Assembly (NCBI GenBank): GCA_964016885.1
Contig: OZ024760.1
Coordinates: 31,930,001-31,994,000, forward strand
Length of the DNA stretch: 64,000 nucleotides
Reading direction: 5' to 3'
Origin: Eledone cirrhosa
Lineage: Eukaryota
This document shows, piece after piece, positions 3,580-64,000 of this stretch. Made by a program: the position numbers and the translations under genes. Within the stretch, counting starts at the first letter, position 1. Each line of letters begins with the position of its first letter. A model generated the notes under the pieces. That model saw only the letters and a program-made list of their open reading frames with translations, was not told the DNA's origin and ran no database searches.

Positions 3580-4195
3580 TTAGTATATCTACCAACATAT
3601 GTATACAGAAACTAATTAGTTGGAGTGAAAACTTTAGTAAGTAAGTTAATTTTAAAATTTTCTTATTTTACGTCTTTCATATAATTGTTCTGCATCCCCT
3701 TGCATAGAACCACAAAGTTACTAAGACAAAACATATATATTTGCTAGCATAGGTATACATCTGTATACATATGTTGGTAGATATACTAATTCTCTATATT
3801 TATCTCCAAATTATTTGTTGAGCAAAACTTGCCGAAATTTACTGCTATGGTTCATGGTAGTAGTTAGGCTCTTGTCTTATTACCACTCCACTCCTCACTG
3901 ATTAACCTCAGTGTCACGTGATTGATTCTTTAGAATTTGCCACTGACCAAGTAGGCAGTGAATTTTTTCAGTGCCCTGGAATCTAGTCCCCGCTCGCTTT
4001 TTTCCATCCACTGAATTATTACTTTTATATGGGTTCCTAGTGCCTGGGAACTTAGCTGAGAATAGACTCCCTGATGACGTAAGGATTTCTCTATGGTTGC
4101 GTTGCGTAACTATATTTATTCCCTTACAGAAACTAATTAGTTGGAGTGAAAATTTTAGTAAGTAAGTTAATTTTAAAATTTTCTTATTTTACGTC

Positions 4196-4200
<5 letters not shown>
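3578..4200 (+). mobile_element. Penelope-like pseudo-LTR fragment with partial tandem repeat and short inversion
   Basis: 3604-3682 directly repeats 4125-4200; 3578-3608 is inverted at ~3762-3795; contains a hammerhead; ends in (TA)n. Confidence 0.65.
4066..4147 (+). ncRNA. Type I hammerhead ribozyme
   Basis: actcc-CTGATGA-c-gtaagg...ccttac-a-GAAA-ctaattag-TT-ggagt: perfect 5-bp stem I, stem II with long loop, palindromic stem III. Confidence 0.7.
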
Positions 4201-4252
<52 letters not shown>

Positions 4253-4294
4253 GATATTAAATAAATGGAAACTATATTTATAAAACCATATTTA

Positions 4295-4351
4295 TTCTAT
4301 TATATATATTTCAAGGGTACCAAAACTTTGGTACGCTTTCATCAGATAAAA
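4295..4351 (-). ncRNA. Minimal type I hammerhead ribozyme
   Basis: Reverse complement of the motif at 7267-7323. Confidence 0.75.
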
Positions 4352-5519
4352 AACGAAGTGTGTTTTATAAATGTTGACAACCAAGAAAAGATACTTTAAC
4401 GGTTCAACTTTTTCTTGGATAGTGAAGGAAAAGAGAAGAAAAGGCAGATATTTCAAATTGTTAAGATGAGTATGCAAATGAGGTTGAGGTATAGGGCTGA
4501 AAAAACGTTATTTTTAGACGCTATGGAGAATTGAAATAATTATGATATGTGTTTGTATAAGTAGGAAGAAGAAAAAGGAAGAAGAGCTTGTATTTACGTT
4601 AATTTGGGGGAAAAGGTGGAATATGATTCCAGAGTTTAAATTTAAATTTATTTACCTATATTATGAGTTATATGAAGAATTATGGTTGTAAGTATTTTGA
4701 TCTTATTACATTACAATAGGTTATATGTATATAAATATCTATATAGATTAATAATTGTGCATGTATTATAGAAATAGAAATAATTTACAATTATTGGTTG
4801 TTTACATTTCTAATATGAGTTACGAAGGAAGTTGATTTTGTATTTTACATAAAAATAGGTGGTTCAAGTTGGGAGAGGAGAACAATTTGAAGATTCGAAT
4901 ATTTTGTTCAACATTGAAAATGTTTTTAGAATATTGTTAATTTAGCGAAGTTATATAGATTATCATACATAATATGTTTATGTTTGCACGATTGAGAAAG
5001 GAAAGACAACTCCAATTTTGTTTGTTAACCGTTAAATTTGATGAATGATTTACTCAAAAATATATAGAGAAAATTATATATTATTTTGAGTGAGATTAAT
5101 TATTTTAGTCGAAGGATATGTGGATGTTTGAATATCAAAAAAAGAGGAAAAACGTAATGTGCTTTTAGAAGAACTATCGTAAAGAGGATAAATTTTCAGA
5201 ATGTCAATTAAAGATTATCAATCTACATCTAAAAATAATATATTTAGAGGGGTGTCATTAGAAAAATAATGTCAAAATTAAAAATAATGTCAGAATTAAA
5301 ATAATGTCAAAATTAAAAATATTAAATATATATATTAAAAAAATTAATGTGAAAAGGTAAAAATATTAGAAATATTAGAGATATTAAAAAAAAAATTAGA
5401 AATATTAAAAATATTAAAAATATTAAAAATATTAAATAATTAAAAAAATTTACATTTAAATTTTTAAGGAAGATACGATCATTTTGAAGGTGTATAGGAA
5501 TATTATAAATTTAAAATAG

Positions 5520-6250
5520 TTCTGAACGTAGAATTTTGGCGATGTCTGCAAGAAGAAAATAATTCTGTTCTAAGATTAATAGAGTTTTGACAGTTAATTA
5601 TATAAAAAATTTCTTCGATACACAAGTTACAGAATCTTGATAAAGCCATATTTCGGTATGCAAGTGCTTTCGAAATCGTTCTCCAAGATATTGAATAGTC
5701 TATATTGTTGTCTTTTAAGTTCCAAATTAGATGTGAAAGTGAAGTAGAAGATTTTTTTTATCAGATCTCCTAAATGTGTGTTTATTGAAGTGGCACCAAC
5801 ATAGTTAAATATTTTGTCGCTAGTTTTAACTGTGCATTTATAAAGTACGTTTTTGTCTAAACAATTATTTTGTAAAGGGCAGTTTGATTTAATTCTACAG
5901 TTACATTTTCTGGAGTTGTTGTTCGGAACGGTACCATTATTCTGAATATTGTTGTTAGAAATATTATTATTGCTATTTTGGTTAGTTTGGTTAGGGTTTA
6001 AATTTAAGTTTCTATTATTAAGTTTCTGTTTTACGTGCTGTTAGAATTATATTCATTTCATCACTAGATAAGTCTGTATGTTTAGACGCGTAGATAAGTG
6101 CCTTATTAAGTAAACTAGGGGTAATAAAGGAGTAGTAATTTACAATATCCATTTAAATGAATTTTTTGTTATGTTTTAATTTTATGATATTGAACCAATC
6201 TATAACTTCATTAGTACCGTTCCATAGTTTAAAATGTGATTTTTCTTTAA
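5520..6250 (-). pseudogene. Penelope-like RT N-terminal motif fused by deletion to GIY-YIG endonuclease remnant
   Basis: Manual translation: LWNGTNEVIDWFNII..KFI*MDIVNYYSFITPSLLNKAL..IILTARKT, Asn-rich linker, CNCRIKSNCPLQNNCLDKNVLYKCTV..FNYVGAT, then FCNLCIEEIFYII..INLRTELFSSCRH. Confidence 0.85.
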
Positions 6251-7266
6251 GTAGTGGTATAATTCTATCTAATATTTCTTTTTAATATTTCTAATTTTTA
6301 ATATCTCTAATATTTCTAATATTTTTACCTTTCACATTATTTTTTTTTAATATATATATTTAATATTTTTAATTTTGACATTATTTTAATTCTGACATTA
6401 TTTTTAATTTTGACATTATTTTTCTAATGACACCCCTCTAAATATATTTTCTTTAGATATAGATTGATAATCTTTAATTGACATTCTGAAAATTTATCCT
6501 CTTTTTCCGACTAAAATAATTGATCTCACACAAAATAATATATAATTTTCTCTATATATTTTTGAGTAAATCATTCATCAAATTTAACGGTTAATAAACA
6601 AAATTGGAGTTGTCTTTCCTTTCTCAATCGTGCAAACATAAACATATTATGATTGATAATCTATATGACATCGCTAAATTAACAATATTCTAAAAACATT
6701 TTCAATGTTGAACAAAATATTCGAATCTACAAATTGTTCTCCTCTCCCAACTTGAACCACCTATTTTTATGTAAAATACAAAATCAACTTCCTTTGTAAC
6801 TCATATTAGAAATGTAAACAACCAATAATTGTAAATTATTTCTATTTCTATAATACATGCACAATTATTAATCTATATAGATATTTATATACATATAACC
6901 TATTGTAATGTAATAAGATCAAAATACTTACAACCATAACTCTTCATATAACTCATAATATAGGTAAATAAATTTAAATTTAAACTCTGGAATCATATTC
7001 CACCTTTTCCCCCAAATTAACGTAAATACAAGCTCTTCTTCCTTTTTCTTCTTTCCTACTTATACAAACACATATCATAATTATTTCAATTCTCCATAGC
7101 GTCTAAAAATAACGTTTTTTCAGCCCTATACCTCAACCTCATTTGCATACTCATCTTAACAATTTGAAATATCTGACTTTTCTTCTCTTTTCCTTCACTA
7201 TCCAAGAAAATGTTGAACCGTTAAGGTATCTTTTCTTGGTTGTCAACATTTATAAAACACTTCGTT

Positions 7267-7323
7267 TTTTATCTGATGAAAGCGTACCAAAGTTTTGGTA
7301 CCCTTGAAATATATATAATAGAA
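7267..7323 (+). ncRNA. Minimal type I hammerhead ribozyme
   Basis: ttttat-CTGATGA-aagcgtaccaaagttttggtaccctt-GAAA-tatata-TA-atagaa. Confidence 0.75.
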
Positions 7324-7457
7324 TAAATATGGTTTTATAAATATAGTTTCCATATATTTAATATAATTGAAATACTCTGGAAAACTTGTAGAGTGCTTTG
7401 AATCAGTTCTAAACATTTATATTTGTTGAATTACCAACAAATTGAATATCCCTTCTG

Positions 7458-7502
<45 letters not shown>

Positions 7503-30774: not shown

Positions 30775-31945
30775 TATATAAGTAACAACCTGTTTTACAT
30801 GTGGCTGGTGCACAGGGGCAGTAAGTAGCAAGAACTCTCAGGATACAAACTCCTTCAAGTGCCGAGAGGGATCTGTAGAAGTGGTAAAGAGTTTCATGGG
30901 TGACCAAATCAGCAGTGGTGAAGGGTGTCCCGAAAGCACAGTAACCAGAGAACAGGCTGGAAAAAGTTCAGGGAGCTACTACCGTTACTAACTACAAAAG
31001 GATTTTCTCTCAAAATGAAAGGCAGACTGTATGATACACGAATACAAACAACAATGTTGCACAGCAGCGAGGCCTGGGTACTGTGTGCTGAGGACCTGGC
31101 ACAGCAGCGAGGCCTGGGCACTGTGTGCTGAGGACCTGGCACAGCAGCGAGGCCTGGGTACTGTGTGTTGAGGACCTGGCACAGCAGCGAGGCCTGGGCA
31201 CTGTGTGTTGAGGACCTGGCACAGCAGCGAGGCCTGGGCACTGTGTGTTGAGGACCTGGCACAGCAGCGAGGCCTGGGCACTGTGTGCTGAGGACCTGGC
31301 ACAGCAGCGAGGCTTGGGCACTGTGTGTTGAGGACCTGGCACAGCAGCGAGGCCTGGGTACTGTGTGTTGAGGACCTGGCACAGCAGCAAGACCTGGGTA
31401 CTGTGTGTTGAGGACCTGGCACAGCAGCGAGGCCTGGGCACTGTGTGTTGAGGACCTGGCACAGCAGCGAGGCCTGGGCACTGTGTGTTGAGGACCTGGC
31501 ACAGCAGCGAGGCCTGGGCACTGTGTGTTGAGGATCTGGCACAGCAGTGAGGCCTGGGCACTGTGTGTTGAGGACCTGGCACAGCAGCGAGGCCTGGGTA
31601 CTGTGTGTTGAGGACCTGCAGAGATTGGAAATAAATGAAGCCTCCATGCTTCGATGGATGTGCAATAGCAATATACCTGAGCAGCAAAGCAAAAACGAAC
31701 TGCGAGAGAAATTACACATAAGAGGGATGAGATGTTGTGTGCAGGAAAGGAGATTGCACTGGTATGGACATGCGATGTGTATGAAGAGTGACAGCTGTGC
31801 AGAGTGCTCAAAGTTGATGGAAGCTATGGAGTGGGCAGACCTAGGAATACTTGGGATGAGGTTATAAAAGCTGACTTTACACAATTACACCTGTCTAAGG
31901 TGATGACACAGGACCGTGATGTCTGAAGACCTGCCCTCACATATG
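30775..31945 (+). mobile_element. RTE LINE fragment interrupted by an internal minisatellite
   Basis: GWKKFRELLPLL..GRLYD..MLHSSEAW | EDLQRLEINEASMLRWMC..RLHWYGH. Confidence 0.9.
31059..31619. repeat. 40-bp minisatellite, ~14 copies
   Basis: Unit ACAGCAGCGAGGCCTGGGCACTGTGTGTTGAGGACCTGGC. Confidence 0.95.
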
Positions 31946-32972: not shown

Positions 32973-33014
<42 letters not shown>

Positions 33015-33055
33015 TTCAAAATATTAACAAAAATAGACATTCGTGTGATCAAGTA

Positions 33056-33122
33056 TATTTTATTATACATATTTCAGAGGTACTGAGCTATCTTCAACAG
33101 TACGTCCTCATCAGATAAAATA
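33056..33122 (-). ncRNA. Minimal type I hammerhead ribozyme
   Basis: Reverse complement of 33223-33289. Confidence 0.75.
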
Positions 33123-33222
33123 AGATGATGCATGACATACCCTGACTTAGTAGATGGTTAAGATTCATTACCATGACTGAATCTTAACCATCTACTAAGT
33201 CAGGGTATGTCATGCATCATCT

Positions 33223-33289
33223 TATTTTATCTGATGAGGACGTACTGTTGAAGATAGCTCAGTACCTCTGAAATATGTATAATAAAATA
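33223..33289 (+). ncRNA. Minimal type I hammerhead ribozyme
   Basis: tattttat-CTGATGA-ggacgtactg..cagtacctct-GAAA-tatgta-TA-ataaaata; perfect 8-bp stem I. Confidence 0.8.
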
Positions 33290-33430
33290 TACTTGATCAC
33301 ACGAATGTCTATTTTTGTTAATATTTCGAATTAATATTAATAACTTTGTGGAGTGCTTCCAATCTATTGTAAAACTCATACTTTGATTTATTCATTGAAC
33401 CTTGTTTAACCTTTAAATATATATATATAT

Positions 33431-33875
<445 letters not shown>

Positions 33876-43438: not shown

Positions 43439-43905
43439 AAAGTTTTATTTAAAATTGTTGGGATACAACAAGTAAATATTTTATAATTGATATAAAGCAC
43501 TCGACAAGTTTTTGGAGTAGATATACGATATTAAATAAATGGAAACTATATTTATAAAACCATATTTATAAAACCATATTTAAATATGGTTTTATAAATA
43601 TAGTTTCCATTTATTTAATATCGTATATATATATAAGCAGAAGGGTTATTCAATTTGTTGGTAATTCAACAAATATAAATGTTTATAACTGATTCAGAGC
43701 ACTCAACAGATTTGCTGGAGTATAATATACAATGATATTAAATAAATGGAAACTATATTTATAAAACCATATTTATTCTATTATATATATTTCAAGGGTA
43801 CCAAACTTTGGTACACTATCAACAGATAAAATACGAAGTGTGTTTTATAAATGTTGACATAACCAAGGAGAATATACCTTAACGGTTCATGTTATCCCTG
43901 GATAT
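43437..43905 (-). mobile_element. Two adjacent Penelope-like pLTR fragments (43437-43625 hairpin; 43634-43905 with mutated hammerhead at 43776-43831)
   Basis: First matches 33640-33770; second matches the reverse complement of ~7200-7462 but core reads CTGTTGA. Confidence 0.75.
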
Positions 43906-47738: not shown

Positions 47739-48487
47739 TATATATTTATGTAAATGTATGTGTATATATATATATACTGAGAGAGAGAGAATGAGGAGGT
47801 GGGGGCAAGGGTGGAGGAGGAGATGTAGTGGGGGTGGATGAGATGTAGTAGTGGGGGTGGGGTGAGGAGATATAGTGGGGGGTGGGGGTGGAGGAGATGT
47901 AGAAGTTAAAGCGAAAGTGTTTAAAACCACATCAGAAAACATGAAGTAAAACATCCTGAAAACTGTATTTTATTATTTCAGCTTAGATAAATATTTTGGC
48001 AGGAATTTCATGAATCTTACCCAATAACCTATTCCCTAATTTAGTTGGTCCCTTTTGTTACCTAATAACTCTAGTTACAGCAAGCTAACCCCATCCCCCT
48101 TATAAGCTACTTAATAAGATTTTTTTCCTGTTTCTATCTATAAAAAAATTCTTCATCCTAGCAAGTCGATGATGTGGTTTAACAACAACTTAAAGGATTA
48201 GCTAAGGACTTGTTATTAGACCCAATACTGGTTAACACTCATAGGAAAGTTTCTTAACATATCCTGGATGAACATAGCTTAGAAACCTGAAATATGGTTT
48301 GTTTAGAGGTGAAAATGTTTTCAGAGGAGTGCTTGACGTGGGTGAATACATATTAATGTAGAGTATCGTATTCTGAATAGAGGGAGTGGAGTCTTCAATC
48401 AACTGAGGCTATCCTTGTTATTTCAACACTGAAATTCCCTTCCCTTCGGGTGGGTGTTCAGATCATAGTAACTAAAGTACAGAACTC

Positions 48488-51400
48488 CTATAGTCTGAGT
48501 TGTTCCAAGGTTTTGAGAAGTAAGGGAGAGAAAGACTATAGACTGGGTTGATCCAAGGTTTTGAGAAGTAAGGGAGAGAAAGGCTATAGACTAGGTTGAT
48601 TCAAGGTTTTGAAAAGTAAGGCAGAGAAAGAATATAGTCTGAGTTGATGCAAGGTTTTGAGAAGTGAGGGAGAGAAAGGCTATAGTCTGAGTTGATTCCA
48701 GGTTTTGAGAAGTAAGGGAGAGTAAGGCTATAGAGTAAGTTGATGCAAGGTTTTGAGAAGTAAGGGAGAGAAAGACTATAGTCTGAGTTGATCCCAGGTT
48801 ATGAGAAGTAAGGGAGAGAAAGATTATAGACTAGGTTGATCCCAGGTTTTGAGAAGTAAGGGAAAGAAAGACGATAGACTGAGTTGATCCAAGGTTTTGA
48901 GAAGTAAGGGAGAGAAAGGCTATAGACTGAGTTAATCCCAGGTTTTGTGAAGTATGGCAGAGAAAGATTATAGTCTGAGTTAATCCAAGGTTTTGAGAAG
49001 TAAGGGAGAGAAAGGCAATAGGCTGAGTTGATAAAAGGTTTTGAGAAGTAAGGGAGAGAAAGGCTATAGTTTGAGTTGATCCCAGGTTTTGAGAAGTAAA
49101 GGAGAGAAAGATTATAGTCAGAGTTGATACAAGGTTTTGAGAAGTAAGGGAAAGAAAGACTATAGACTGAGTTGATCCAAGGTTTTGAGAAGTAAGGGAG
49201 AGAAATACTATAGTCTGAGATGATCACAGGTTTTGAGAAGTAAGGGAGAGAAAGACTATAGACTGAGTTGATCCAAGGTTTTGAGAAGTAAGGGAGAGAA
49301 AGACTATAGACTGAGTTGCTCCAAGGTTTTGAGAAGTAAGGGAGAGAAAGGCAATAGTCTGACTTGATCGCAGGTTTTGAGAAGTAAGGCAGAGAAAGAA
49401 TATAGTCTGAGTTGTTCCAAGGTTTTGAGAAGTATGGCAGAGAAAGACTATAGTCTGAGTTGTTCCAAGGTTTTGAGAAGTATGGCAGAGAAAGATTATA
49501 GTCTGAGTTAATCCAAGGTTTTGAGAAGTAAGGGAGAGAAAGGCAATAGGCTGAGTGGATAAAAGGTTTTGAGAAGTAAGGGAGAGAAAGGCTATAGTCT
49601 GAATTGATCCAAGGTTTTGAGAAGTAAAGGAGGAGAAAGACTATAATCTGAGTTGATCCAAGGTTTTGAGAAGTAGAGGACAGAAAGGCTATAGTCTGAG
49701 TTGATCCAAGGTTTTGAGAAGTAAGGGAGAGAAAGACTATAGACAAGGTTGATCCCAGGTATTGAGAAGTGAGGGAGAGAAAGACGATAGACTGAGTTGT
49801 TCCAAGGTTTTGAGAAGTAAGGGAGAGAAATACATTAAACTGAGTTAATCCCAGGTTTTGAGAAGTAAGGGAGAGAAAGACTATAGTATGAGTTGATTCA
49901 AGGTTTTGAGAAGTAAGGGAGAGAAATACTATAGACTGAGTTGCTCCAAGGTTTTGAGAAGTAAGGGAGAGAAAGGCAATAGTCTGACTTGATCGCAGGT
50001 TTTGAGAAGTAAGGGAGAGAAAGACTATAGACTGAGTTGCTCCAAGGTTTTGAGAAGTAAGGGAGAGAAAGGCAATAGTCTGACTTGATCGCAGGTTTTG
50101 AGAAGTAAGGCAGAGAAAGACTATAGTCTGAGTTGTTCCAAGGTTTTGAGAAGTATGGCAGAGAAAGATTATAGTCTGAGTTAATCCAAGGTTTTGAGAA
50201 GTAAGGGAGAGAAAGGCAATACGCTGAGTTGATAAAAGGTTTTGAGAAGTAAGGGAGAGAAAGGCTATAGTCTGAATTGAGCCAAGGTTTTGAGAAGTAA
50301 AGGAGGAGAAAGACTATAATCTGAGTTGATCCAAGGTTTTGAGAAGTAGAGGACAGAAAGGCTATAGTCTGAGTTGATCCAAGGTTTTGAGAAGTAAGGG
50401 AGAGAAAGACTATAGACAAGGTTGATCCCAGGTATTGAGAAGTGAGGGAGAGAAAGACGATAGACTGAGTTGTTCCAAGGTTTTGAGAAGTAAGGGAGAG
50501 AAATACATTAAACTGAGTTAATCCCAGGTTTTGAGAAGTAAGGGAGAGAAAGACTATAGTATGAGTTGATTCAAGGTTTTGAGAAGTAAGGGAGAGAAAT
50601 ACTATTATTTGAGTTGATCCCAGGTTTTGAGAAATAAGGGAGAGAAAGACTATAGACTGAGTTGATCCCAGGTTTTGAGAAGTAAGGGAGAGAAAGCCTA
50701 TAGACTGAGTTGATCCCAGGTTTTGAGAAGTAAGGGAGAGAAATACTATAGTTTGAGTTGATCCCAAGTTTTGAGAAGTAAGGAAGAGAAAGACTATAGT
50801 CTGAGTTGATCCTAGGTTTTTGAGAAGTAAGGGAGAGAAAGAATATAGTCTGATTTGATCCCAGGTTTTGAGAAGTAAGGAAAAGAAAGACTATAGACTG
50901 AGTTGATCCAAGGTTTTGAGAAGTAAGGGAGGGAAAGGCTATAGACTGAGTTGATCCAAGGGTTTTAGAAGTGGGGGAGAGAAAGACTATAGTCTGACTT
51001 GATCCGCGGCTTTGAGAAGTAAGGGAGAGAAAGACAATAAACTGAGTTAAACCCAGGTTTTGAGAAGTAAGGGAGAGAAAGACTAGAGTCTGACATGATC
51101 GCAGGTTTTGAGAAGTAAGGCAGAGAAAGACTATAGTCTGAGCTGTTGCAAGGTTTTGAGAAGTAAGGGAGAGAAAGATTATAGTCTGAGTTAAAACAAA
51201 GGTTTTGAGAAGTAAAGCAGATAAAGACAATAGTCTGAGTTGATCCAAGGTTTTGAGAAGTAAGGGAAAGAAAGGTTATAGTCTGAGTTGATCCCAGGTT
51301 TGGAGAAGTAAGGCAGAAAAGTCTATCGTCTGACTTGATTCAAGGCTTTGAGAAATAAGGGGGAGAAAGGTTATAGTATGAGTTGATTCAAGGTTTGGGG

Positions 51401-54400
51401 AAGTAAGGGAGACAAGGACTATAGACTGAGTTGATCCCAGGTTTTGAGAAGTAAGGGAGATAAAGGGAGTCTGAGTTGATCCAAGGTATTCAGAAGTAAG
51501 GGAGAGAAAGGCTATAGACTGTGTTAATCCCAGGTTTTGAGAAGTAAGGGAGAGAAAGACGATAGTCTGAGATGATTCCAGGTTTTAAGAACTATAGGAG
51601 AGCAAGATTATAGTCTGAGTTGATCCAAGGTTTTGAGAAGTAAAGGAGGAGAAAGACTATAATCTGAGTTGATCCAAGGTTTTGAGAAGTAAGGGAGAGA
51701 AAGGCTATAGTCTGAGTTGATCCAAGGTTTTGAGAAGTAAGGGAGAGAAAGACTATAGACAAGGTTGATCCCAGGTATTGAGAAGTAAGGGAGAGAAAGA
51801 CGATAGACTGAGTTGATCCAAGGTTTTGAGAAGTAAGGTAGAGAAATGTTATAGTATGAGTTGATTCAAGGTTTTGAGAAGTAAGGGAGAGAAATACTAC
51901 TATTTGAGTTGATCCCAGGTTTTGAGAAGTAAGGGAGAGAAAGCCTATAGACTGAGTTGATCCCAGGTTTTGAGAAGTAAGGGAGAGAAATACTATAGTT
52001 TGAGTTGATCCCAAGTTTTGAGAAGTAAGGAAGAGAAAGACTATTGTCTGAGTTGATCCTAGGTTTTTGAGAAGTAAGGGAGAGAAAGACAATAAACTGA
52101 GTTAAACCCAGGTTTTGAGAAGTAAGGGAGAGAAAGACTAGAGTCAGACATGATCGCAGGTTTTGAGAAGTAAGGCAGAGAAAGACAATAGTCTGAGTTG
52201 TTGCAAGGTTTTGAGAAGTAAGGGAGAGAAAGATTATAGTCTGAGTTAAAACAAGGTTTTGAGAAGTAAAGCAGATAAAGACAATAGTCTGAGTTGATCC
52301 AAGGTTTTGAGAAGTAAGGGAAAGAAAGGTTATAGTCTGAGTTTATCCCAGGTTTGGAAAAGTAAGGGAGAGAAAGTCTATCGTCTGACTTGATTCAAGT
52401 CTTTGAGAAGTAAGGGCGAGAAAGGTTATAGTATGAGTTGATTCCAGGTTTGGGGAAGTAAGGGAGACAAGGACTATAGACTGAGTTGATCCCAGGTTTT
52501 GAGAAGTAAGGGAGATAAAGGGAGTCTGAGTTGATCCAAGGTATTCAGAAGTAAGGGAGAGAAAGGCTATAGACTGTGTTAATCCCAGGTTTTGAGAAGT
52601 AAGGGAGAGAAAGACGATAGTCTGAGATGATTCCAGGTTTTAAGAACTATAGGAGAGCAAGATTATAGTCTGAGTTGATCCAAGGTTTTGAGAAGTAAAG
52701 GAGGAGAAAGACTATAATCTGAGTTGATCCAAGGTTTTGAGAAGTAAGGGAGAGAAAGGCTATAGACTGTGTTAATCCCAGGTTTTGAGAAGTAAGGGAG
52801 AGAAAGACGATAGACTGAGATGATTCCAGGTTTTAAGAACTAAAGGAGAGCAAGATTATAGTCTGAGTTGATCCAAGGTTTTGAGAAGTAAAGGAGGAGA
52901 AAGACTATAACCTGAGTTGATCCAAGGTTTTGAGAAGTAAGGGAGAGAAAGAGGATAGACTGAGTTGATCCAAGGTTTTGAGAAGTAAGGTAGAGAAAGG
53001 TTATAGTATGAGTTGATTCAAAGTTTTGAGAAGTAAGGGAGAGAAATACTATTATTTGAGTTGATCCCAGGTTTTGAGAAATAAGGGAGAGAAAGACTAT
53101 AGACTGATTTGATCCCAGGTTTTGAGAAGTAAGGGAGAGAAAGAATATAGTCTGAGTTGATCCCAGGTTTTGAGAAGTGAGGCAGAAAAAGACTATAGAC
53201 TGAGTTGATCCAAGGTTTTGAGAAGTAAGGGAGAGAAAGACTATAGACTGAGTTGATCCCAGGTTTTGAGAAGTAAGGGAGAGAAAGACTATAGACTGAG
53301 TTGATCCAAGGTATTCAGAAGTAAGGGAGAGAAAGGCTATAGACTGTGTTAATCCCAGGTTTTGAGAAGTAAGGGAGAGAAAGACAATAGACTGAGTTGA
53401 TCCCAGGTTTTGAGAAGTAAGGGAGAGAAAGAGGATAGACTGAGTTGATCCAAGGTTTTCAGAAGTAAGGTAGAGAAAGGTTATAATCTGAGTTGATCCA
53501 GGGTTTTGAGAAGTAAGGGGGAGAAAGGCTATAGTCTGAGTTGATCCAAGGTTTTGAGAAGTAAGGGAGAGAAAGTCTATAGACAAGGTTGATACCAGGT
53601 ATTGAGAAGTAAGGGAGATAATGACGATAGACTGAGTTGATCCAAGGTTTTGAGAAGTAAGGTAGAGAAAGGTTATAGTATGAGTTGATTCAAGGTTTTG
53701 AGAAGTAAGGGAGAGAAAGACTATAGACAAGGTTGATCTAAGTTATTGAGAAGTAAGGGATAGGAAGACGATACACTGAGTTGATCCAAGGTTTTGAGAA
53801 GTAAGGGAGAGAAAGGTTATAGTATGAGTTGATTCAAGGTTTCGAGAAGTAAGGGAGAGAAATACTATTATTTGAGTTGATCCCAGGTTTTGAGATATAA
53901 GGGAGAGAAAGGCTATAGACTGTGTTAATCCCAGGTTTTGAGAAGTGAGGGAGAGAAAGACTATAGACTGAGTTGATCCCAGGTTTTGAGAAGTAAGGTA
54001 GAGAAAGGTTATAATCTGAGTTGATCCAGGGTTTTGAGAAGTAAGGGAGAGAAAGCCTATAGATTGAGTTGATCCCAGGTTTTGAGAAGTAAGGGAGAGA
54101 AATACTATAGTTTGAGTTGATCCCAAGTTTTGAGAAGTAAGGAAGAGAAAGACTATAATCTGAGTTGATCCTAGATTTTTGAGAAGTAAGGGAGAGAAAG
54201 AATATAGTCTGATTTGTTCCAAGGTTTTGAGAAGTAAGGCAGAGAACGACTATAGACTGAGTTGATCCAAGGTTTTGAGAAGTAAGGGAGAGAAAGGCTA
54301 TAGACTGAGTTGATCCAAGGTTTTGAAAAGTAAGGGAGAGAAATACTATTATTTGAGTTGATCCCAGGTTTTGACAAATAAGGGAGAGAATGACTATAGA

Positions 54401-57400
54401 CTGAGTTGATCCCAGGTTTAGAGAAGTAAGGGAGAGAAAGGCTATAGACTGAGTTGATCCCAGGTTTTGAGAAATAAGGGAGAGAAAGACTATAGACTGA
54501 GTTGATCCCAGGTTTTGAGAAGTAAGGGAGAGAAAGCCTATAGACTGAGTTGATCCCAGGTTTAGAGCAGTAAGGGAGAGAAATACTATAGTTTGAGTTG
54601 ATCCCAAGTTTTGAGAAGTAAGGAAGAGAAAGACTATTGTCTGAGTTGATCCTAGGTTTTTGAGAAGTAAGGGAGAGAAAGAATATAGTCTGATTTGATC
54701 CCAGGTTTTTGAGAAGTAAGGCAGAGAAAGACTATAGACTGAGTTGATCCAAGGTTTAGAGAAGTAAGGGAGAGAAAGGCTATAGACTGAGTTGATCCAA
54801 GGGTTTTAGAAGTAAGGGAGAGAAAGACTATAGTCTGATTTGATCCGTGGCTTTGAGAAGTAAGGGAGAGAAAAACAATAAATTGAGTAAAACCCAGGTT
54901 TTGAGAAGTAAGGGAGAGAAAGATTATAGTCTGAGATGATCGCAGGTTTTGAGAAGTAAGGCAGAGAAAGATTATAGTCTGAGTTAAACCAAGGTTTTGA
55001 GAAGTAAAGCAGAGAAAGACAATAGTCTGAGTTGATCCAAGGTTTTGAGAATTAATGGAAAGAAAGGTTATAGTCTGAGTTGATCCCAGGTTTGGAGAAG
55101 TAAGGGAGAGAAAGTCTATCGTCTGACTTGATTCAAGGCTTTGAGAAGTAAGGGCGAGAAAGATTATAGTATGAGTTGATTCCAGGTTTGTGGAAGTAAG
55201 CGAGACAAGGACTATAGACTGAGTCGATCCCAGGTTTTGAGAAATAAGGGAGAGAAAGGCTATAGACTGTGTTAATCCCAGGTTTTGAGAAGTAAGGGAG
55301 AGAAAGACAATAGACTGAGTTGATCCAAGGTTTTGAGAAGTAAGGGAGATAAAGACTATAGTCTGAGATGATTCCAGGTTTTAAGAAGTAAAGGAGAGCA
55401 AGATTATAGTCTGAGTTGATCCAAGGTTTTGAGAAGTAAAGGAGGAGAAAGACTATAATCTGAGTTGATCCAAGGTTTTGAGAAGTAAGGGAGAGAAAGA
55501 CTATAGACAAGGTTGATCTCAGGTATTGAGAAGTAAGGCATAGAAAGACGATACACTGAGTTGATCCAAGGTTTTTAGAAGTAAGCTAGAGAAAGCTTAT
55601 AGTATGAGTTGATTCAAGGTTTTGAGAAGTAAGGGAGAGAAATACTATTATTTGAGTTGATCCCAGGTTTTGAGAAATAAGGGAGAGAAACACTATAGAC
55701 TGATTTGATCCCAGGTTTTGAGAAATAAGGGAGAGAAAGAATATAGTCTGAGTTGATCCCAGGTTTTGAGAAGTTAGGCAGAAAATGACTATAGACTGAG
55801 TTGATCCAAGGTTTTGAGAAGTAAGGGAGAGAAAGACTATAGACTGAGTTGATCCCAGGCTTTGAGAAGTAAGGGAGAGAAAGACTATAGACTGAGTTGA
55901 TCCAAGGTATTCAGAAGTAAGGGAGAGAAAGGCTATAGTCTGTGTTAGTCCCAGGTTTTGAGAAGTAAGGGAGAGAAAGACTATAGACTGAGTTGATCCC
56001 AGGTTTTGAGAAGTAAGGGAGAGAAAGAGGATAGACTGAGTTGATCCAAGGTTTTCAGAAGTAAAGGAGGAGAAAGACTATAATCTGAGTTGATCCAAGG
56101 TTTTGAGAAGTAAGGGAGAGAAAGGCTATAGTCTGAGTTGATCCAAGGTTTTGAGAAGTAAGGGAGAGAAAGTCTATAGACAAGGTTGATACCAGGTATT
56201 GAGAAGTAAGGGAGATAAAGACGATAGACTGAGTTGATCCAAGGTTTTGAGAAGTAAGGTAGAGAAAGGTTATAGTATGAGTTGATTCAAGGTTTTGAGA
56301 AGTAAGGGAGAGAAAGACTATAGACAAGTTTGATCTAAGTTATTGAGAAGTAAGGGATAGGAAGACGATACACTGAGTTGATCCAAGGTTTTGAGAAGTA
56401 AGGGAGAGAAAGGTTATAGTATGAGTTGATTCAAGGTTTCGAGAAGTAAGGGAGAGAAATACTATTATTTGAGTTGATCCCAGGTTTTGAGATATAAGGG
56501 AGAGAAAGACTATAGACTGATTTGATCCCACGTTTTGAGAAGTAAGGGAGAGAAAGAATATAGTCTGAGTTGATCCCAGGTTTTGAGAAGTGAGGCAGAA
56601 AATGACTATAGACTGAGTTGATCCAAGGTTTTGAGAAGTAAGGGAGAGAAAGACTATAGACTGAGTTGATCCCAGGCTTTGAGAAGTAAGGGAGAGAAAG
56701 ACTATAGACTGAGTAGATCCAAGGTATTCAGAAGTAAGGGAGAGAAAGGCTATAGACTGTGTTAATACCAGGTTTTGAGAAGTGAGGGAGAGAAAGACTA
56801 TAGACTGAGTTGATCCCAGGTTTTGAGAAGTAAGGTAGAGAAAGGTTATAATCTGAGTTGATCCAGGGTTTTGAGAAGTAAGGGAGAGAAAGCCTATAGA
56901 TTGAGTTGATCCCAGGTTTTGAGAAGTAAGGGAGAGAAATACTATAGTTTGAGTTGATCCCAAGTTTTGAGAAGTAAGGAAGAGAAAGACTATAATCTGA
57001 GTTGATCCTAGATTTTTGAGAAGTAAGGGAGAGAAAGAATATAGTCTGATTTGTTCCAAGGTTTTGAGAAGTAAGGCAGAGAACGACTATAGACTGAGTT
57101 GATCCAAGGTTTTGAGAAGTAAGGGAGAGAAAGGCTATAGACTGAGTTGATCCAAGGGTTTTAGAAGTAAGGGAGAGAAACACTATAGTCTGATTTGATC
57201 TGAGGTTTTGAGAAGTAAGGGAGAGAAAGACAATAAACTGAGTTAATCCCAGGTTTTGAGAAGTAAGGGAGAGAAAGACTATAGTCTGACATGATCGCAG
57301 GTTTTGAGAAGTAAGGCAGAAAAAGACTATAGTCTGTGTTGTTCCTAGGTTTTGAGAAGTAAGGGAGAGAACGACTATAGACTGAGTTGATCCCAGGTTT

Positions 57401-60400
57401 TGAGAAGTAAGGAAGAGAAAGACTATAGACTGAGTTGATCCAAGGTTTTGAGAAGTAAGGGAGAGAAAGGCTATAGACTGAGTTGATCCAAGGGTTTTAG
57501 AAGTAAGGGAGAGAAAGACTATAGTTTGATTTGATCCGAGGTTTTGAGAAGTAAGGGAGAGAAAGACAATAAACTGAGTTAATCCCAGGTTTTGAGAAGT
57601 AAGGGAGAGAAAGACTATAGTCTGACATGATCGCAGCTTTTGAGAAGTAAGGCAGAGAAAGACTATAGTCTGATTTGTTCCAAGGTTTTGAGAAGTAAGG
57701 GAGAGAAAGATTATAGTCTGAGTTAAACCAAGGTTTTGAGAAGTAAGGGAAAGAAAGGTTATAGTCTGAGTTGATCCCAGGTTTGGAGAAGTAAGGGAGA
57801 GAAAGTCTATCGTCTGACTTGATTCAAGGTTTTGAGAAGTAAGGGCGAGAAAGATTATAGTATGAGTTGATTCCAGGTTTGGGGAAGTAAGGGAGACAAG
57901 GCCTATAGACTGAGTTGATCCCAGGTTTTGAGAAGTAAGGGAGATAAAAACTATAGTCTGAGTTGATCCCAGGTTATGAGAAGTAAGGGAGAGAAATATT
58001 ATAGACTAGGTTGTTCCCAGGTCTTGAGAAGTAAGGGAGAGAAAGACGATAGACTGAGTTGATCCTAGGTATTCAGAAGTAAGGGAGAGAAAGGCTATAG
58101 ACTGCGTTAATCCCAGGTTTTGAGAAGTAAGGGAGAGAAAGACTATAGACTGAGTTGATCCCAGGTTTTGAGAAGTAAGGGAGAGAAAGACTATAGTCTG
58201 AGATGATTCCAGGTTTTAAGAAGTAAAGGAGGAGAAACACTATAATCTGAGTTGATCCAAGCTTTTGATAAGTAGGGGAGAGAAAGGCTATAGACTGAGT
58301 TGATCCAAGGTTTTGAGACGTAAGGGAGAAAAAGACTATAGACAAGGTTGATCCCAGGTATTGAGAAGTAAGGGAGAGAAAGACTATAGACTGAGTTGAT
58401 CCAAGGTTTAGAGAAGTAAGGGAGAGAAAGGCTATAGACTGAGTTGATCCAAGGGTTTTAGAAGTAAGGGAGAGAAAGACTATAGTCTGATTTGATCCGT
58501 GGCTTTGAGAAGTAAGGGAGAGAAAAACAATAAATTGAGTAAAACCCAGGTTTTGAGAAGTAAGGGAGAGAAAGATTATAGTCTGAGATGATCGCAGGTT
58601 TTGAGAAGTAAGGCAGAGAAAGATTATAGTCTGAGTTAAACCAAGGTTTTGAGAAGTAAAGCAGAGAAAGACAATAGTCTGAGTTGATCCAAGGTTTTGA
58701 GAATTAATGGAAAGAAAGGTTATAGTCTGAGTTGATCCCAGGTTTGGAGAAGTAAGGGAGAGAAAGTCTATCGTCTGACTTGATTCAAGGCTTTGAGAAG
58801 TAAGGGCGAGAAAGATTATAGTATGAGTTGATTCCAGGTTTGTGGAAGTAAGCGAGACAAGGACTATAGACTGAGTCGATCCCAGGTTTTGAGAAATAAG
58901 GGAGAGAAAGGCTATAGACTGTGTTAATCCCAGGTTTTGAGAAGTAAGGGAGAGAAAGACAATAGACTGAGTTGATCCAAGGTTTTGAGAAGTAAGGGAG
59001 ATAAAGACTATAGTCTGAGATGATTCCAGGTTTTAAGAAGTAAAGGAGAGCAAGATTATAGTCTGAGTTGATCCAAGGTTTTGAGAAGTAAAGGAGGAGA
59101 AAGACTATAATCTGAGTTGATCCAAGGTTTTGAGAAGTAAGGGAGAGAAAGACTATAGACAAGGTTGATCTCAGGTATTGAGAAGTAAGGCATAGAAAGA
59201 CGATACACTGAGTTGATCCAAGGTTTTTAGAAGTAAGCTAGAGAAAGCTTATAGTATGAGTTGATTCAAGGTTTTGAGAAGTAAGGGAGAGAAATACTAT
59301 TATTTGAGTTGATCCCAGGTTTTGAGAAATAAGGGAGAGAAACACTATAGACTGATTTGATCCCAGGTTTTGAGAAATAAGGGAGAGAAAGAATATAGTC
59401 TGAGTTGATCCCAGGTTTTGAGAAGTTAGGCAGAAAATGACTATAGACTGAGTTGATCCAAGGTTTTGAGAAGTAAGGGAGAGAAAGACTATAGACTGAG
59501 TTGATCCCAGGCTTTGAGAAGTAAGGGAGAGAAAGACTATAGACTGAGTTGATCCAAGGTATTCAGAAGTAAGGGAGAGAAAGGCTATAGTCTGTGTTAG
59601 TCCCAGGTTTTGAGAAGTAAGGGAGAGAAAGGCTATAGACTGAGTTGATCCCAGGTTTTGAGAAGTTAGGGAGAGAAAGAGGATAGACTGAGTTGATCCA
59701 AGGTTTTCAGAAGTAAAGGAGGAGAAAGACTATAATCTGAGTTGATCCAAGGTTTTGAGAAGTAAGGGAGAGAAAGGCTATAGTCTGAGTTGATCCAAGG
59801 TTTTGAGAAGTAAGGGAGAGAAAGTCTATAGACAAGGTTGATACCAGGTATTGAGAAGTAAGGGAGATAAAGACGATAGACTGAGTTGATCCAAGGTTTT
59901 GAGAAGTAAGGTAGAGAAAGGTTATAGTATGAGTTGATTCAAGGTTTTGAGAAGTAAGGGAGAGAAAGACTATAGACAAGTTTGATCTAAGTTATTGAGA
60001 AGTAAGGGATAGGAAGACGATACACTGAGTTGATCCAAGGTTTTGAGAAGTAAGGGAGAGAAAGGTTATAGTATGAGTTGATTCAAGGTTTCGAGAAGTA
60101 AGGGAGAGAAATACTATTATTTGAGTTGATCCCAGGTTTTGAGATATAAGGGAGAGAAAGACTATAGACTGATTTGATCCCACGTTTTGAGAAGTAAGGG
60201 AGAGAAAGAATATAGTCTGAGTTGATCCCAGGTTTTGAGAAGTGAGGCAGAAAATGACTATAGACTGAGTTGATCCAAGGTTTTGAGAAGTAAGGGAGAG
60301 AAAGACTATAGACTGAGTTGATCCCAGGCTTTGAGAAGTAAGGGAGAGAAAGACTATAGACTGAGTTGATCCAAGGTATTCAGAAGTAAGGGAGAGAAAG

Positions 60401-63400
60401 GCTATAGACTGTGTTAATACCAGGTTTTGAGAAGTGAGGGAGAGAAAGACTATAGACTGAGTTGATCCCAGGTTTTGAGAAGTAAGGTAGAGAAAGGTTA
60501 TAATCTGAGTTGATCCAGGGTTTTGAGAAGTAAGGGAGAGAAAGCCTATAGATTGAGTTGATCCCAGGTTTTGAGAAGTAAGGGAGAGAAATACTATAGT
60601 TTGAGTTGATCCCAAGTTTTGAGAAGTAAGGAAGAGAAAGACTATAATCTGAGTTGATCCTAGATTTTTGAGAAGTAAGGGAGAGAAAGAAGATAGTCTG
60701 ATTTGTTCCAAGGTTTTGAGAAGTAAGGCAGAGAACGACTATAGACTGAGTTGATCCAAGGTTTTGAGAAGTAAGGGAGAGAAAGGCTATAGACTGAGTT
60801 GATCCAAGGTTTTGAAAAGTAAGGGAGAGAAATACTATTATTTGAGTTGATCCCAGGTTTTGACAAATAAGGGAGAGAATGACTATAGACTGAGTTGATC
60901 CCAGGTTTAGAGAAGTAAGGGAGAGAAAGGCTATAGACTGAGTTGATCCCAGGTTTTGAGAAATAAGGGAGAGAAAGACTATAGACTGAGTTGATCCCAG
61001 GTTTTGAGAAGTAAGGGAGAGAAAGCCTATAGACTGAGTTGATCCCAGGTTTAGAGCAGTAAGGGAGAGAAATACTATAGTTTGAGTTGATCCCAAGTTT
61101 TGAGAAGTAAGGAAGAGAAAGACTATTGTCTGAGTTGATCCTAGGTTTTTGAGAAGTAAGGGAGAGAAAGAATATAGTCTGATTTGATCCCAGGTTTTTG
61201 AGAAGTAAGGCAGAGAAAGACTATAGACTGAGTTGATCCAAGGTTTAGAGAAGTAAGGGAGAGAAAGGCTATAGACTGAGTTGATCCAAGGGTTTTAGAA
61301 GTAAGGGAGAGAAAGACTATAGTCTGATTTGATCCGCGGCTTTGAGAAGTAAGGGAGAGAAAAACAATAAATTGAGTAAAACCCAGGTTTTGAGAAGTAA
61401 GGGAGAGAAAGATTATAGTCTGAGATGATCGCAGGTTTTGAGAAGTAAGGCAGAGAAAGATTATAGTCTGAGTTAAACCAAGGTTTTGAGAAGTAAAGCA
61501 GAGAAAGACAATAGTCTGAGTTGATCCAAGGTTTTGAGAATTAATGGAAAGAAAGGTTATAGTCTGAGTTGATCCCAGGTTTGGAGAAGTAAGGGAGAGA
61601 AAGTCTATCGTCTGACTTGATTCAAGGCTTTGAGAAGTAAGGGCGAGAAAGATTATAGTATGAGTTGATTCCAGGTTTGTGGAAGTAAGCGAGACAAGGA
61701 CTATAGACTGAGTCGATCCCAGGTTTTGAGAAATAAGGGAGAGAAAGGCTATAGACTGTGTTAATCCCAGGTTTTGAGAAGTAAGGGAGAGAAAGACAAT
61801 AGACTGAGTTGATCCAAGGTTTTGAGAAGTAAGGGAGATAAAGACTATAGTCTGAGATAATTCCAGGTTTTAAGAAGTAAAGGAGAGCAAGATTATAGTC
61901 TGAGTTGATCCAAGGTTTTGAGAAGTAAGGGAGAGAAAGTCTATAGACAAGGTTGATACCAGGTATTGAGAAGTAAGGGAGATAAAGACGATAGACTGAG
62001 TTGATCCAAGGTTTTGAGAAGTAAGGTAGAGAAAGGTTATAGTATGAGTTGATTCAAGGTTTTGAGAAGTAAGGGAGAGAAAGACTATAGACAAGTTTGA
62101 TCTAAGTTATTGAGAAGTAAGGGATAGGAAGACGATACACTGAGTTGATCCAAGGTTTTGAGAAGTAAGGGAGAGAAAGGTTATAGTATGAGTTGATTCA
62201 AGGTTTCGAGAAGTAAGGGAGAGAAATACTATTATTTGAGTTGATCCCAGGTTTTGAGATATAAGGGAGAGAAAGACTATAGACTGATTTGATCCCACGT
62301 TTTGAGAAGTAAGGGAGAGAAAGAATATAGTCTGAGTTGATCCCAGGTTTTGAGAAGTGAGGCAGAAAATGACTATAGACTGAGTTGATCCAAGGTTTTG
62401 AGAAGTAAGGGAGAGAAAGACTATAGACTGAGTTGATCCCAGGCTTTGAGAAGTAAGGGAGAGAAAGACTATAGACTGAGTAGATCCAAGGTATTCAGAA
62501 GTAAGGGAGAGAAAGGCTATAGACTGTGTTAATACCAGGTTTTGAGAAGTGAGGGAGAGAAAGACTATAGACTGAGTTGATCCCAGGTTTTGAGAAGTAA
62601 GGTAGAGAAAGGTTATAATCTGAGTTGATCCAGGGTTTTGAGAAGTAAGGGAGAGAAAGCCTATAGATTGAGTTGATCCCAGGTTTTGAGAAGTAAGGGA
62701 GAGAAATACTATAGTTTGAGTTGATCCCAAGTTTTGAGAAGTAAGGAAGAGAAAGACTATAATCTGAGTTGATCCTAGATTTTTGAGAAGTAAGGGAGAG
62801 AAAGAATATAGTCTGATTTGTTCCAAGGTTTTGAGAAGTAAGGCAGAGAACGACTATAGACTGAGTTGATCCAAGGTTTTGAGAAGTAAGGGAGAGAAAG
62901 GCTATAGACTGAGTTGATCCAAGGGTTTTAGAAGTAAGGGAGAGAAACACTATAGTCTGATTTGATCTGAGGTTTTGAGAAGTAAGGGAGAGAAAGACAA
63001 TAAACTGAGTTAATCCCAGGTTTTGAGAAGTAAGGGAGAGAAAGACTATAGTCTGATATGATCGCAGGTTTTGAGAAGTAAGGCAGAAAAAGACTATAGT
63101 CTGTGTTGTTCCTAGGTTTTGAGAAGTAAGGGAGAGAACGACTATAGACTGAGTTGATCCCAGGTTTTGAGAAGTAAGGGAGAGAAAGACTATAGACTGA
63201 GTTGATCCAAGGTTTTGAGAAGTAAGGGAGAGAAAGGCTATAGACTGAGTTGGTCCAAGGGTTTTAGAAGTAAGGGAGAGAAAGACTATAGTTTGATTTG
63301 ATCCGAGGTTTTGAGAAGTAAGGGAGAGAAAGACAATAAACTGAGTTAATCCCAGGTTTTGAGAAGTAAGGGAGAGAAAGACTATAGTCTGACATGATCG

Positions 63401-64000
63401 CAGCTTTTGAGAAGTAAGGCAGAGAAAGACTATAGTCTGATTTGTTCCAAGGTTTTGAGAAGTAAGGGAGAGAAAGATTATAGTCTGAGTTAAACCAAGG
63501 TTTTGAGAAGTAAGGGAAAGAAAGGTTATAGTCTGAGTTGATCCCAGGTTTGGAGAAGTAAGGGAGAGAAAGTCTATCGTCTGACTTGATTCAAGGTTTT
63601 GAGAAGTAAGGGCGAGAAAGATTATAGTATGAGTTGATTCCAGGTTTGGGGAAGTAAGGGAGACAAGGCCTATAGACTGAGTTGATCCCAGGTTTTGAGA
63701 AGTAAGGGAGATAAAAACTATAGTCTGAGTTGATCCCAGGTTATGAGAAGTAAGGGAGAGAAATATTATAGACTAGGTTGTTCCCAGGTCTTGAGAAGTA
63801 AGGGAGAGAAAGACGATAGACTGAGTTGATCCTAGGTATTCAGAAGTAAGGGAGAGAAAGGCTATAGACTGCGTTAATCTCAGGTTTTGAGAAGTAAGGG
63901 AGAGAAAGACTATAGACTGAGTTGATCCCAGGTTTTGAGAAGTAAGGGAGAGAAAGACTATAGTCTGAGATGATTCCAGGTTTTAAGAAGTAAAGGAGGA
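48488..64000. repeat. 48-bp satellite array (>15.5 kb, runs off window) with higher-order structure
   Basis: Unit CTATAGACTGAGTTGATCCAAGGTTTTGAGAAGTAAGGGAGAGAAAGA; 16-aa periodic ORFs. Confidence 0.97.

Follow-up and report, generated by a model that had tools for sequence, protein, structure and literature searches.

A probable Hydra-type Penelope-like element with mirrored 3′ ends in a (TA)n microsatellite of Eledone cirrhosa, and how such insertions may form

Structure of the 3.2-kb element

The window (the whole stretch of 64,000 nucleotides that was analysed) contains a 3.2-kb element flanked by (AT)25 at 4200–4250 and (TA)20 at 7460–7500; with (TA)n on both sides, the repeat would mask any target-site duplication. 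Self-alignment of the window delimits two inverted arms, the left one (4251 to ~5420) of ~1,170 nt and the right one (~6276 to 7367) of ~1,090 nt. The global alignment of 4254–5417 with 6276–7364 gives 1,068 matches and 19 mismatches (1,087 aligned bases) with 8 gaps, the largest of which is a stretch of 66 nt missing from the right arm. A tail of 92 nt (7368–7459) is present on the right side only. The spacer (~5420–6275) consists of an RT fragment fused to a frameshifted endonuclease region. The features are listed below, where E1 is the short end (without tail) and E2 the long end (with tail).

4200–4250, no strand: left flank, the (AT)n microsatellite that served as target; a target-site duplication, if any, would be masked by it.
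4251–5420, minus strand: left arm, the 3′ UTR/pLTR of the body, ending at E1; continuous with the EN region in the full-length relatives L031 and L035.
4295–4351, minus strand: putative type I hammerhead with minimal palindromic stem III, from sequence and family stem II covariation; predicted cut between 4301 and 4300.
5503–6027, minus strand: linker and GIY-YIG-type endonuclease remnant; CxCX5C at ~5905–5879, CxxC at ~5635–5620, CxH at ~5553–5542, stop at 5503–5505.
6027–6031, minus strand: internal-deletion junction, 750–810 nt lost (the rest of the RT core and the thumb), the size varying with the reference copy.
6027–6281, minus strand: RT fragment of 85 codons with one internal stop; the body is 5′-truncated ~620 nt into the ORF.
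6270–6281, no strand: head-to-head junction of body and inverted arm, with an AT-rich overlap of 3–6 nt.
6276–7367, plus strand: right arm, an inverted, 5′-truncated second copy of the 3′ UTR/pLTR; private 66-nt deletion.
7267–7323, plus strand: putative type I hammerhead, identical in sequence to the left one; predicted cut after 7317.
7368–7459, plus strand: tail of 92 nt, E2; in full-length copies it lies between the 5′ pLTR and the ORF start.
7460–7500, no strand: (TA)n target microsatellite, right flank, from the window sequence.

Along the minus strand, the order is tail and 3′ end (both reversed), the junction at ~6276, RT fragment, deletion, broken endonuclease, 1.25-kb 3′ UTR, hammerhead, and end. 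The endonuclease remnant carries frameshifts and a 28-nt deletion at ~5785. Judged from its sequence, the element is a minus-strand Penelope-like element (PLE) that is truncated at the 5′ end, has lost an internal segment, and carries its own 3′ end a second time, inverted, at its 5′ side; we regard its identity as a PLE as close to certain. The copy in the window is dead, and no function is implied. An earlier note on this DNA had described near-perfect inverted arms of ~1.15 kb (the average of the two lengths), an outward-pointing hammerhead near the outer end of each arm, a spacer with coding remnants, an extra tail on the right only, and (TA)n on both flanks, and the present analysis agrees with it on all of these.

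Relatives, proteins and clade

The genome search that the earlier note had proposed recovered full-length relatives. In L042, L031, and L090, the order is pLTR, tail, ATG, RT, EN, 3′ UTR, hammerhead, and end; the tail is therefore the sequence between the pLTR and the start codon. L090 belongs to a sister subfamily (~68% identical over the ORF), and its ORF is split into 537 aa and 221 aa by one frameshift, located in a C run. The L090 protein as a query found 291 homologues, many of them 700–800 aa long, the best named ones being from Argonauta hians. The EN region aligns with the C-termini of the homologues; RT and GIY-YIG-type endonuclease, in this order, are encoded by a single ORF, of which the window contains only remnants. 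Pfam scans of the family proteins and four homologues gave no meaningful match to RT or GIY-YIG, and neither was matched in a PDB sequence search; the domain identity therefore rests on motifs and homologues, which agree with the Penelope-like identity and the RT and GIY-YIG-type remnants proposed earlier.

The clade was assigned using the motif definitions of PMC8557442. The N-terminal RWK position is RWR in L042 and L090, RCR in L031, and RWK or RWR in the homologues; DKG is replaced by DKT (KSDKTNN in L031, L042, and L090). Both regions are absent from the window copy. The linker motif CxCX5C is found in the window copy itself as CNCRIKSNC, as are CxxC and CxH near the C-terminus (FCNLC and SCRH). 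CCHH is absent, with one cysteine located between the VY and YVG motifs. Insertion into (TA)n is seen at the window flanks and at most of 100 sampled ends, and the features of EN+ PLEs (pLTRs from partial tandems, an inverted 5′ copy, and a one-sided tail) all occur in the family. These motifs, with the reference Hydra RTs compared by eye from the supplement text, would place the element and its family in the Hydra clade. Naiad and Chlamys were rejected, as the EN is C-terminal rather than N-terminal to the RT and a canonical hammerhead is present; Neptune and Nematis were rejected on the linker (CxCX5C rather than CX2-5CxxC) and the absence of CCHH from the EN. A non-LTR retrozyme was rejected for the element on account of the coding remnants and a layout that is inverted rather than head-to-tail tandem.

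The family shares with the Hydra clade, as described in PMC8557442, an RT followed by a C-terminal EN, the motifs RW(K/R), DKT, CxCX5C, CxxC, and CxH, the absence of CCHH, (TA)n targets, and a type I hammerhead near the 3′ end. It differs in size, with a unit of ~3.5–3.7 kb and a 3′ UTR of 1.2–1.4 kb as compared to generally <3 kb for Hydra, and in the tail, ~90 nt as compared to the 30–40 nt given for PLEs in the same paper; there are tens of thousands of ends in one genome. Craig 2021 lists a Hydra family from Octopus bimaculoides, Hydra-1_Obim (PMC8557442); its hammerhead has a different sequence, so the family here is another one. An inverted 5′-truncated copy with a one-sided 30- to 40-bp tail is typical of PLEs according to Craig 2021 (PMC8557442), and the supplement describes such a copy of 966 nt in Penelope-13_HM, with a hammerhead on each strand. 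Penelope/Poseidon elements (Pen2a_Av, PMC3846280; PAc, PMC11167929) likewise show an inverted 5′-truncated copy, a hammerhead in the pLTR, and, on one side only, a tail that extends the pLTR in the direction of the ORF start; for rotifers, this layout is shown in PMC3846280. In those elements, however, the hammerhead and tail overlap the ORF, whereas here they lie upstream of the ATG; the linker Zn-finger is present only in the family described here, and its (TA)n target hides any target-site duplication. The layout is already published, and this family is a further case of a known PLE insertion form. Literature searches, with subscription papers, Repbase, and Dfam outside their scope, found no description of this family and no one-tail counts.

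Insertion forms and their possible origin

The terminal 30-mer, common to several subfamilies, has 38,702 exact matches in the searched genome (3.0 Gb, microsatellite-rich), as compared to 0 for the control. The sample, sequence retrieved around the first 100 listed matches of contig C1, comprises 83 insertions; 27 have both termini in inverted arrangement, 13 have an inverted tail fragment only, and 43 are without a detected partner. Five automatic partner assignments were changed by hand, as the assigned partner was part of another insertion, kilobases distant (L086:8274, L089:3842, L089:4127, and L145 to no partner; L140 to tail-only). An inverted partner is present in 40 of the 83 insertions, and this is a lower bound because the unpaired copies inspected (36 of 43) include 7 that fold back near the 5′ end and 3 with short inverted tail scraps. 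The earlier note had presented the locus as a special palindromic element; it has instead the usual PLE insertion form. Arm lengths range from ~40 nt to 3 kb (L031), making the 1.1-kb arms long but not exceptional. Junction positions vary between copies, and nine of the 27 two-ended insertions are palindromes that lack a spacer and differ in their centres. The locus itself is an unremarkable dead copy with a common insertion form, and what the family counts add to the still open question of mechanism is modest and testable.

At L031:2056–9215, a 7.2-kb insertion of the window's subfamily consists of a 3-kb inverted copy and a full-length partial-tandem copy. Very young sister subfamilies, with arms 0.0–0.4% apart, are found at L090:3889–8781 and in L081–L084, L087, L092, and L093; near-intact young copies such as L090 are assay candidates. 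A 5′ boundary that lies ~79–92 nt upstream of the core of the hammerhead, on or close to a motif resembling ACTATCC, recurs in 11 of 123 hammerhead-bearing ends (L107, L148, two in L089, L151, L152, L147, L122, L144, L149, and L109) and at 43904 in the window. It may mark where transcripts begin, or a preferred site of microhomology with (TA)n.

Among the 27 two-ended insertions of the C1 sample, 26 have one tail, 1 has none, and 0 have two. Independent choice of the end by each arm would make at most half of them one-tailed (P = 2e-7 for 26/27 at 0.5). In a second set, picked by spacer similarity, the counts are one tail 8/10, two tails 1/10, and no tail 1/10. The tail is on the long arm in 8, on the short arm in 9, and on neither in 1 of 18 asymmetric two-ended insertions; for all asymmetric one-tail cases, it is on the shorter arm in 22 of 30 (9 two-ended and 13 tail-only), and the window element also has its tail on the shorter arm. 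A tree of 25 arm sequences pairs the two arms of each of the five long-armed insertions as mutual nearest neighbours, with 1.6–3.5% between them as compared to ≥4.3% to most other copies. The window arms differ by 1.6% from each other and by 4.4–5.0% from the next copy, and 11 substitutions occur in both of them but in none of the other 23 sequences. The inverted arm of L031 clusters with the 3′ end (2.1%), but the direct 5′ pLTR does not (4.8–5.7%). At the target junction, each strand of an insertion starts with 3′-end sequence in antisense, as a target-primed cDNA would. The near-strict one-tail rule and the shared arm template are counts that any model of the PLE mechanism must explain.

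We think it likely that the element is a dead Hydra-type PLE copy in (TA)n whose mirrored ends arose at insertion, with both target strands priming cDNA on the same RNA 3′ region. Both target strands would be nicked, and each would prime its own cDNA, one primer starting at E1 and the other ~92 nt further 3′ at E2. Each cDNA would stop at its own point, and the cDNA ends would join head to head through an overlap of a few bases, followed by fill-in. For the window copy, this would mean an E1 cDNA of ~2.8 kb that extends into the RT gene and an E2 cDNA of ~1.2 kb; the loss of the internal segment and the differences between the arms would have arisen during or after insertion. We prefer this two-primer reading because 26 of 27 insertions have one tail and the arms are nearest relatives; the two-primer step itself we infer only from genomic shapes. 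Given the PLE identity, we rate it somewhat better than an even bet that one RNA end was primed twice in a coupled manner, at E1 and at E2, and that the products were then joined head to head. For the general statement, that PLE integration is a coupled two-primer reaction with the RT at E1 and a partner at E2 and that every two-ended insertion has one tail, the chances appear evenly balanced. With ≥60,000 intact cores of the hammerhead, a tail of 92 nt, and subfamilies that are very young, this genome is a natural test data set for such coupling. In LINE-1 twin priming, an inverted 5′ segment likewise results from two primers on a single RNA; the second of them anneals at an internal site, and the 3′ end is not repeated in the inverted part. 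Here, unlike in LINE-1, both arms repeat the 3′ end and differ by the tail.

The in vitro study of a PLE protein reports nicking and extension of both strands and predicts a dimer, with the RT starting at two internal sites that delimit the tail (PMC11167929). Use of the start sites showed no difference between the strands (PMC11167929), and a strict one-tail rule is thus not predicted by that alone. The same study leaves the later integration steps unvalidated (PMC11167929), and the formation of tandem and inverted PLE structures is called undefined in PMC8557442.

A different origin of the mirrored ends would be snap-back synthesis, in which a single cDNA turns back or switches onto itself to copy its own end, after which the endonuclease cuts one of the arms back to E1 and leaves a one-sided tail. 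This is close to the ‘EN-mediated resolution’ of Craig 2021 (PMC8557442), and self-priming is proposed in PMC3846280. It would account for the template shared by the arms, for the nine spacer-less palindromes among 27 insertions, and for the partial 5′ fold-backs in 7 of 36 inspected unpaired copies. A self-copy is, however, limited to the content of the first cDNA, and the tail would be expected on the longer arm, not on the shorter one as in 22 of the 30 C1 cases; the window element contradicts snap-back in the same way unless an antisense RNA template exists. We regard it as unlikely. The earlier proposal of a template switch during integration keeps its timing, since the inversion most likely dates from integration, but a simple switch or snap-back fails on the short-arm tails. 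The spacer-less palindromes and 5′ fold-backs do look like snap-back synthesis, and there may be more than one route; gene conversion between the arms could be another source of their likeness.

We consider each of the remaining explanations very improbable. Had the palindrome been copied whole as a non-autonomous transposing unit (a MITE-like or retrozyme-like subfamily), the cis sequences kept at both ends and the several inverted end pairs 3.2–3.6 kb apart would be explained, but those pairs differ in arm lengths and junctions, and neither window junction recurs: no second copy of the deletion junction was found among 40 scored of 4,330 candidates, and none of the inversion junction among 40 scored of 1,030. 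Two separate insertions, or a later duplication-inversion that put a second 3′ end beside an older body, would be about as improbable. PLEs insert into AT-rich DNA including other PLE ends, and nested neighbours are common in the sampled loci; against this, the inner junction lacks (TA)n, the arms are sisters with 11 shared private substitutions, and the one-tail rule holds across loci. An assembly or chimeric-read artefact we find hardly credible, although long-read data are known to produce false palindromes and assemblers have difficulty with PLE structures (PMC8557442). Between the arms there are 19 substitutions and 8 indels, almost every one of them seen in a single arm; the spacer is unique, only one side has the tail, and the same layout grammar is found at dozens of loci.

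Hammerheads and neighbouring elements

Read directly from the sequence, each window hammerhead combines CUGAUGA and GAAA with a 6-bp stem I, a stem II of 3 + 8 bp that contains a C-C mismatch, a stem III formed by the palindrome ATATATAT, and a UA at the cleavage site. The core is intact in both arms, and the motif sits in the pLTR. The hammerhead pattern has 60,377 genomic matches, as compared to 4 for the reversed control. Of 141 matches in the loci retrieved, 133 have a paired stem I and 125 a paired stem II; stem II swaps A-T/G-C and T-A/C-G at several positions, although the copies are related and the events not independent. Rfam scans of the window gave no hammerhead, only microsatellite-driven miRNA matches, and single-sequence folding recovered stem II only (z about −2). 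The minimal hammerheads of metazoan PLEs described by Cervera and De la Peña in 2014 (PMC4209133) also have a short palindromic helix III and an enlarged helix II and occur in opposite-strand pairs, there 100–700 bp apart; the putative ribozyme here would differ from them in family sequence only. A stem III of this minimal kind is presumed to require dimerisation or additional factors (PMC4209133). In the anole PLE, the ribozyme depended on protein and was dispensable for insertion in vitro (PMC11167929).

In a read-through transcript of the element, the outer 445 nt of each arm give 439 computed pairs, and the transcript is predicted to fold back. A search of sequencing runs listed no RNA run, and the best-matching runs shared 0.34–0.37 of the sequence words; the result has no bearing on expression. 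The 3′ self-cleavage suggested by the earlier note is unlikely for such a transcript, because the sense hammerhead would pair with the antisense copy and be sequestered in the duplex. With at least 60,000 hammerhead cores, the genome would offer a rich set for ribozyme and dsRNA studies if they are transcribed, and the family may seed tens of thousands of hairpin-forming loci.

The short hairpins of the window, which had been linked to an autonomous partner through this copy, are ends of the same or related PLE families; the window copy is dead, and the full-length partners lie elsewhere (L031, L042, and L090). Only one of them, at 43633–43904 (minus strand), belongs to the subfamily of the 3.2-kb element (93%); it is a solo tailed stub that starts at a TATCC site. 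Short one-tailed inverted stubs at 33438–33768 and 43439–43622 match sister subfamilies better. The region 33011–33420 contains a 340-nt spacer-less palindrome (33011–33350) with a hammerhead in each arm and extra sequence on the right only; it is from a more distant PLE family.

The left neighbour (3604–4200, plus strand) shares the (TA)n with the 3.2-kb element and consists of a ~525-nt unit with an 80-nt terminal repeat. Elsewhere, this unit forms head-to-tail tandems (six units at C1:178960281–178963550) and has inverted 5′ parts, the copies being 92–96% identical. A type I hammerhead at ~4066–4147 has CTGATGA, a GTAAGG/CCTTAC stem II with a long loop, GAAA, a palindromic CTAATTAG, and an ACTCC/GGAGT stem I. 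By these features, the unit looks like a non-LTR retrozyme; it has no similarity to the ends of the 3.2-kb PLE. Long arrays of 48-bp tandem repeats, with open frames of 300–500 codons, are located at 13113–14829 and ~48400–64000, and further arrays have repeats of 47 bp (1776–2477), 50 bp (18547–22494), and 40 bp (31059–31618).
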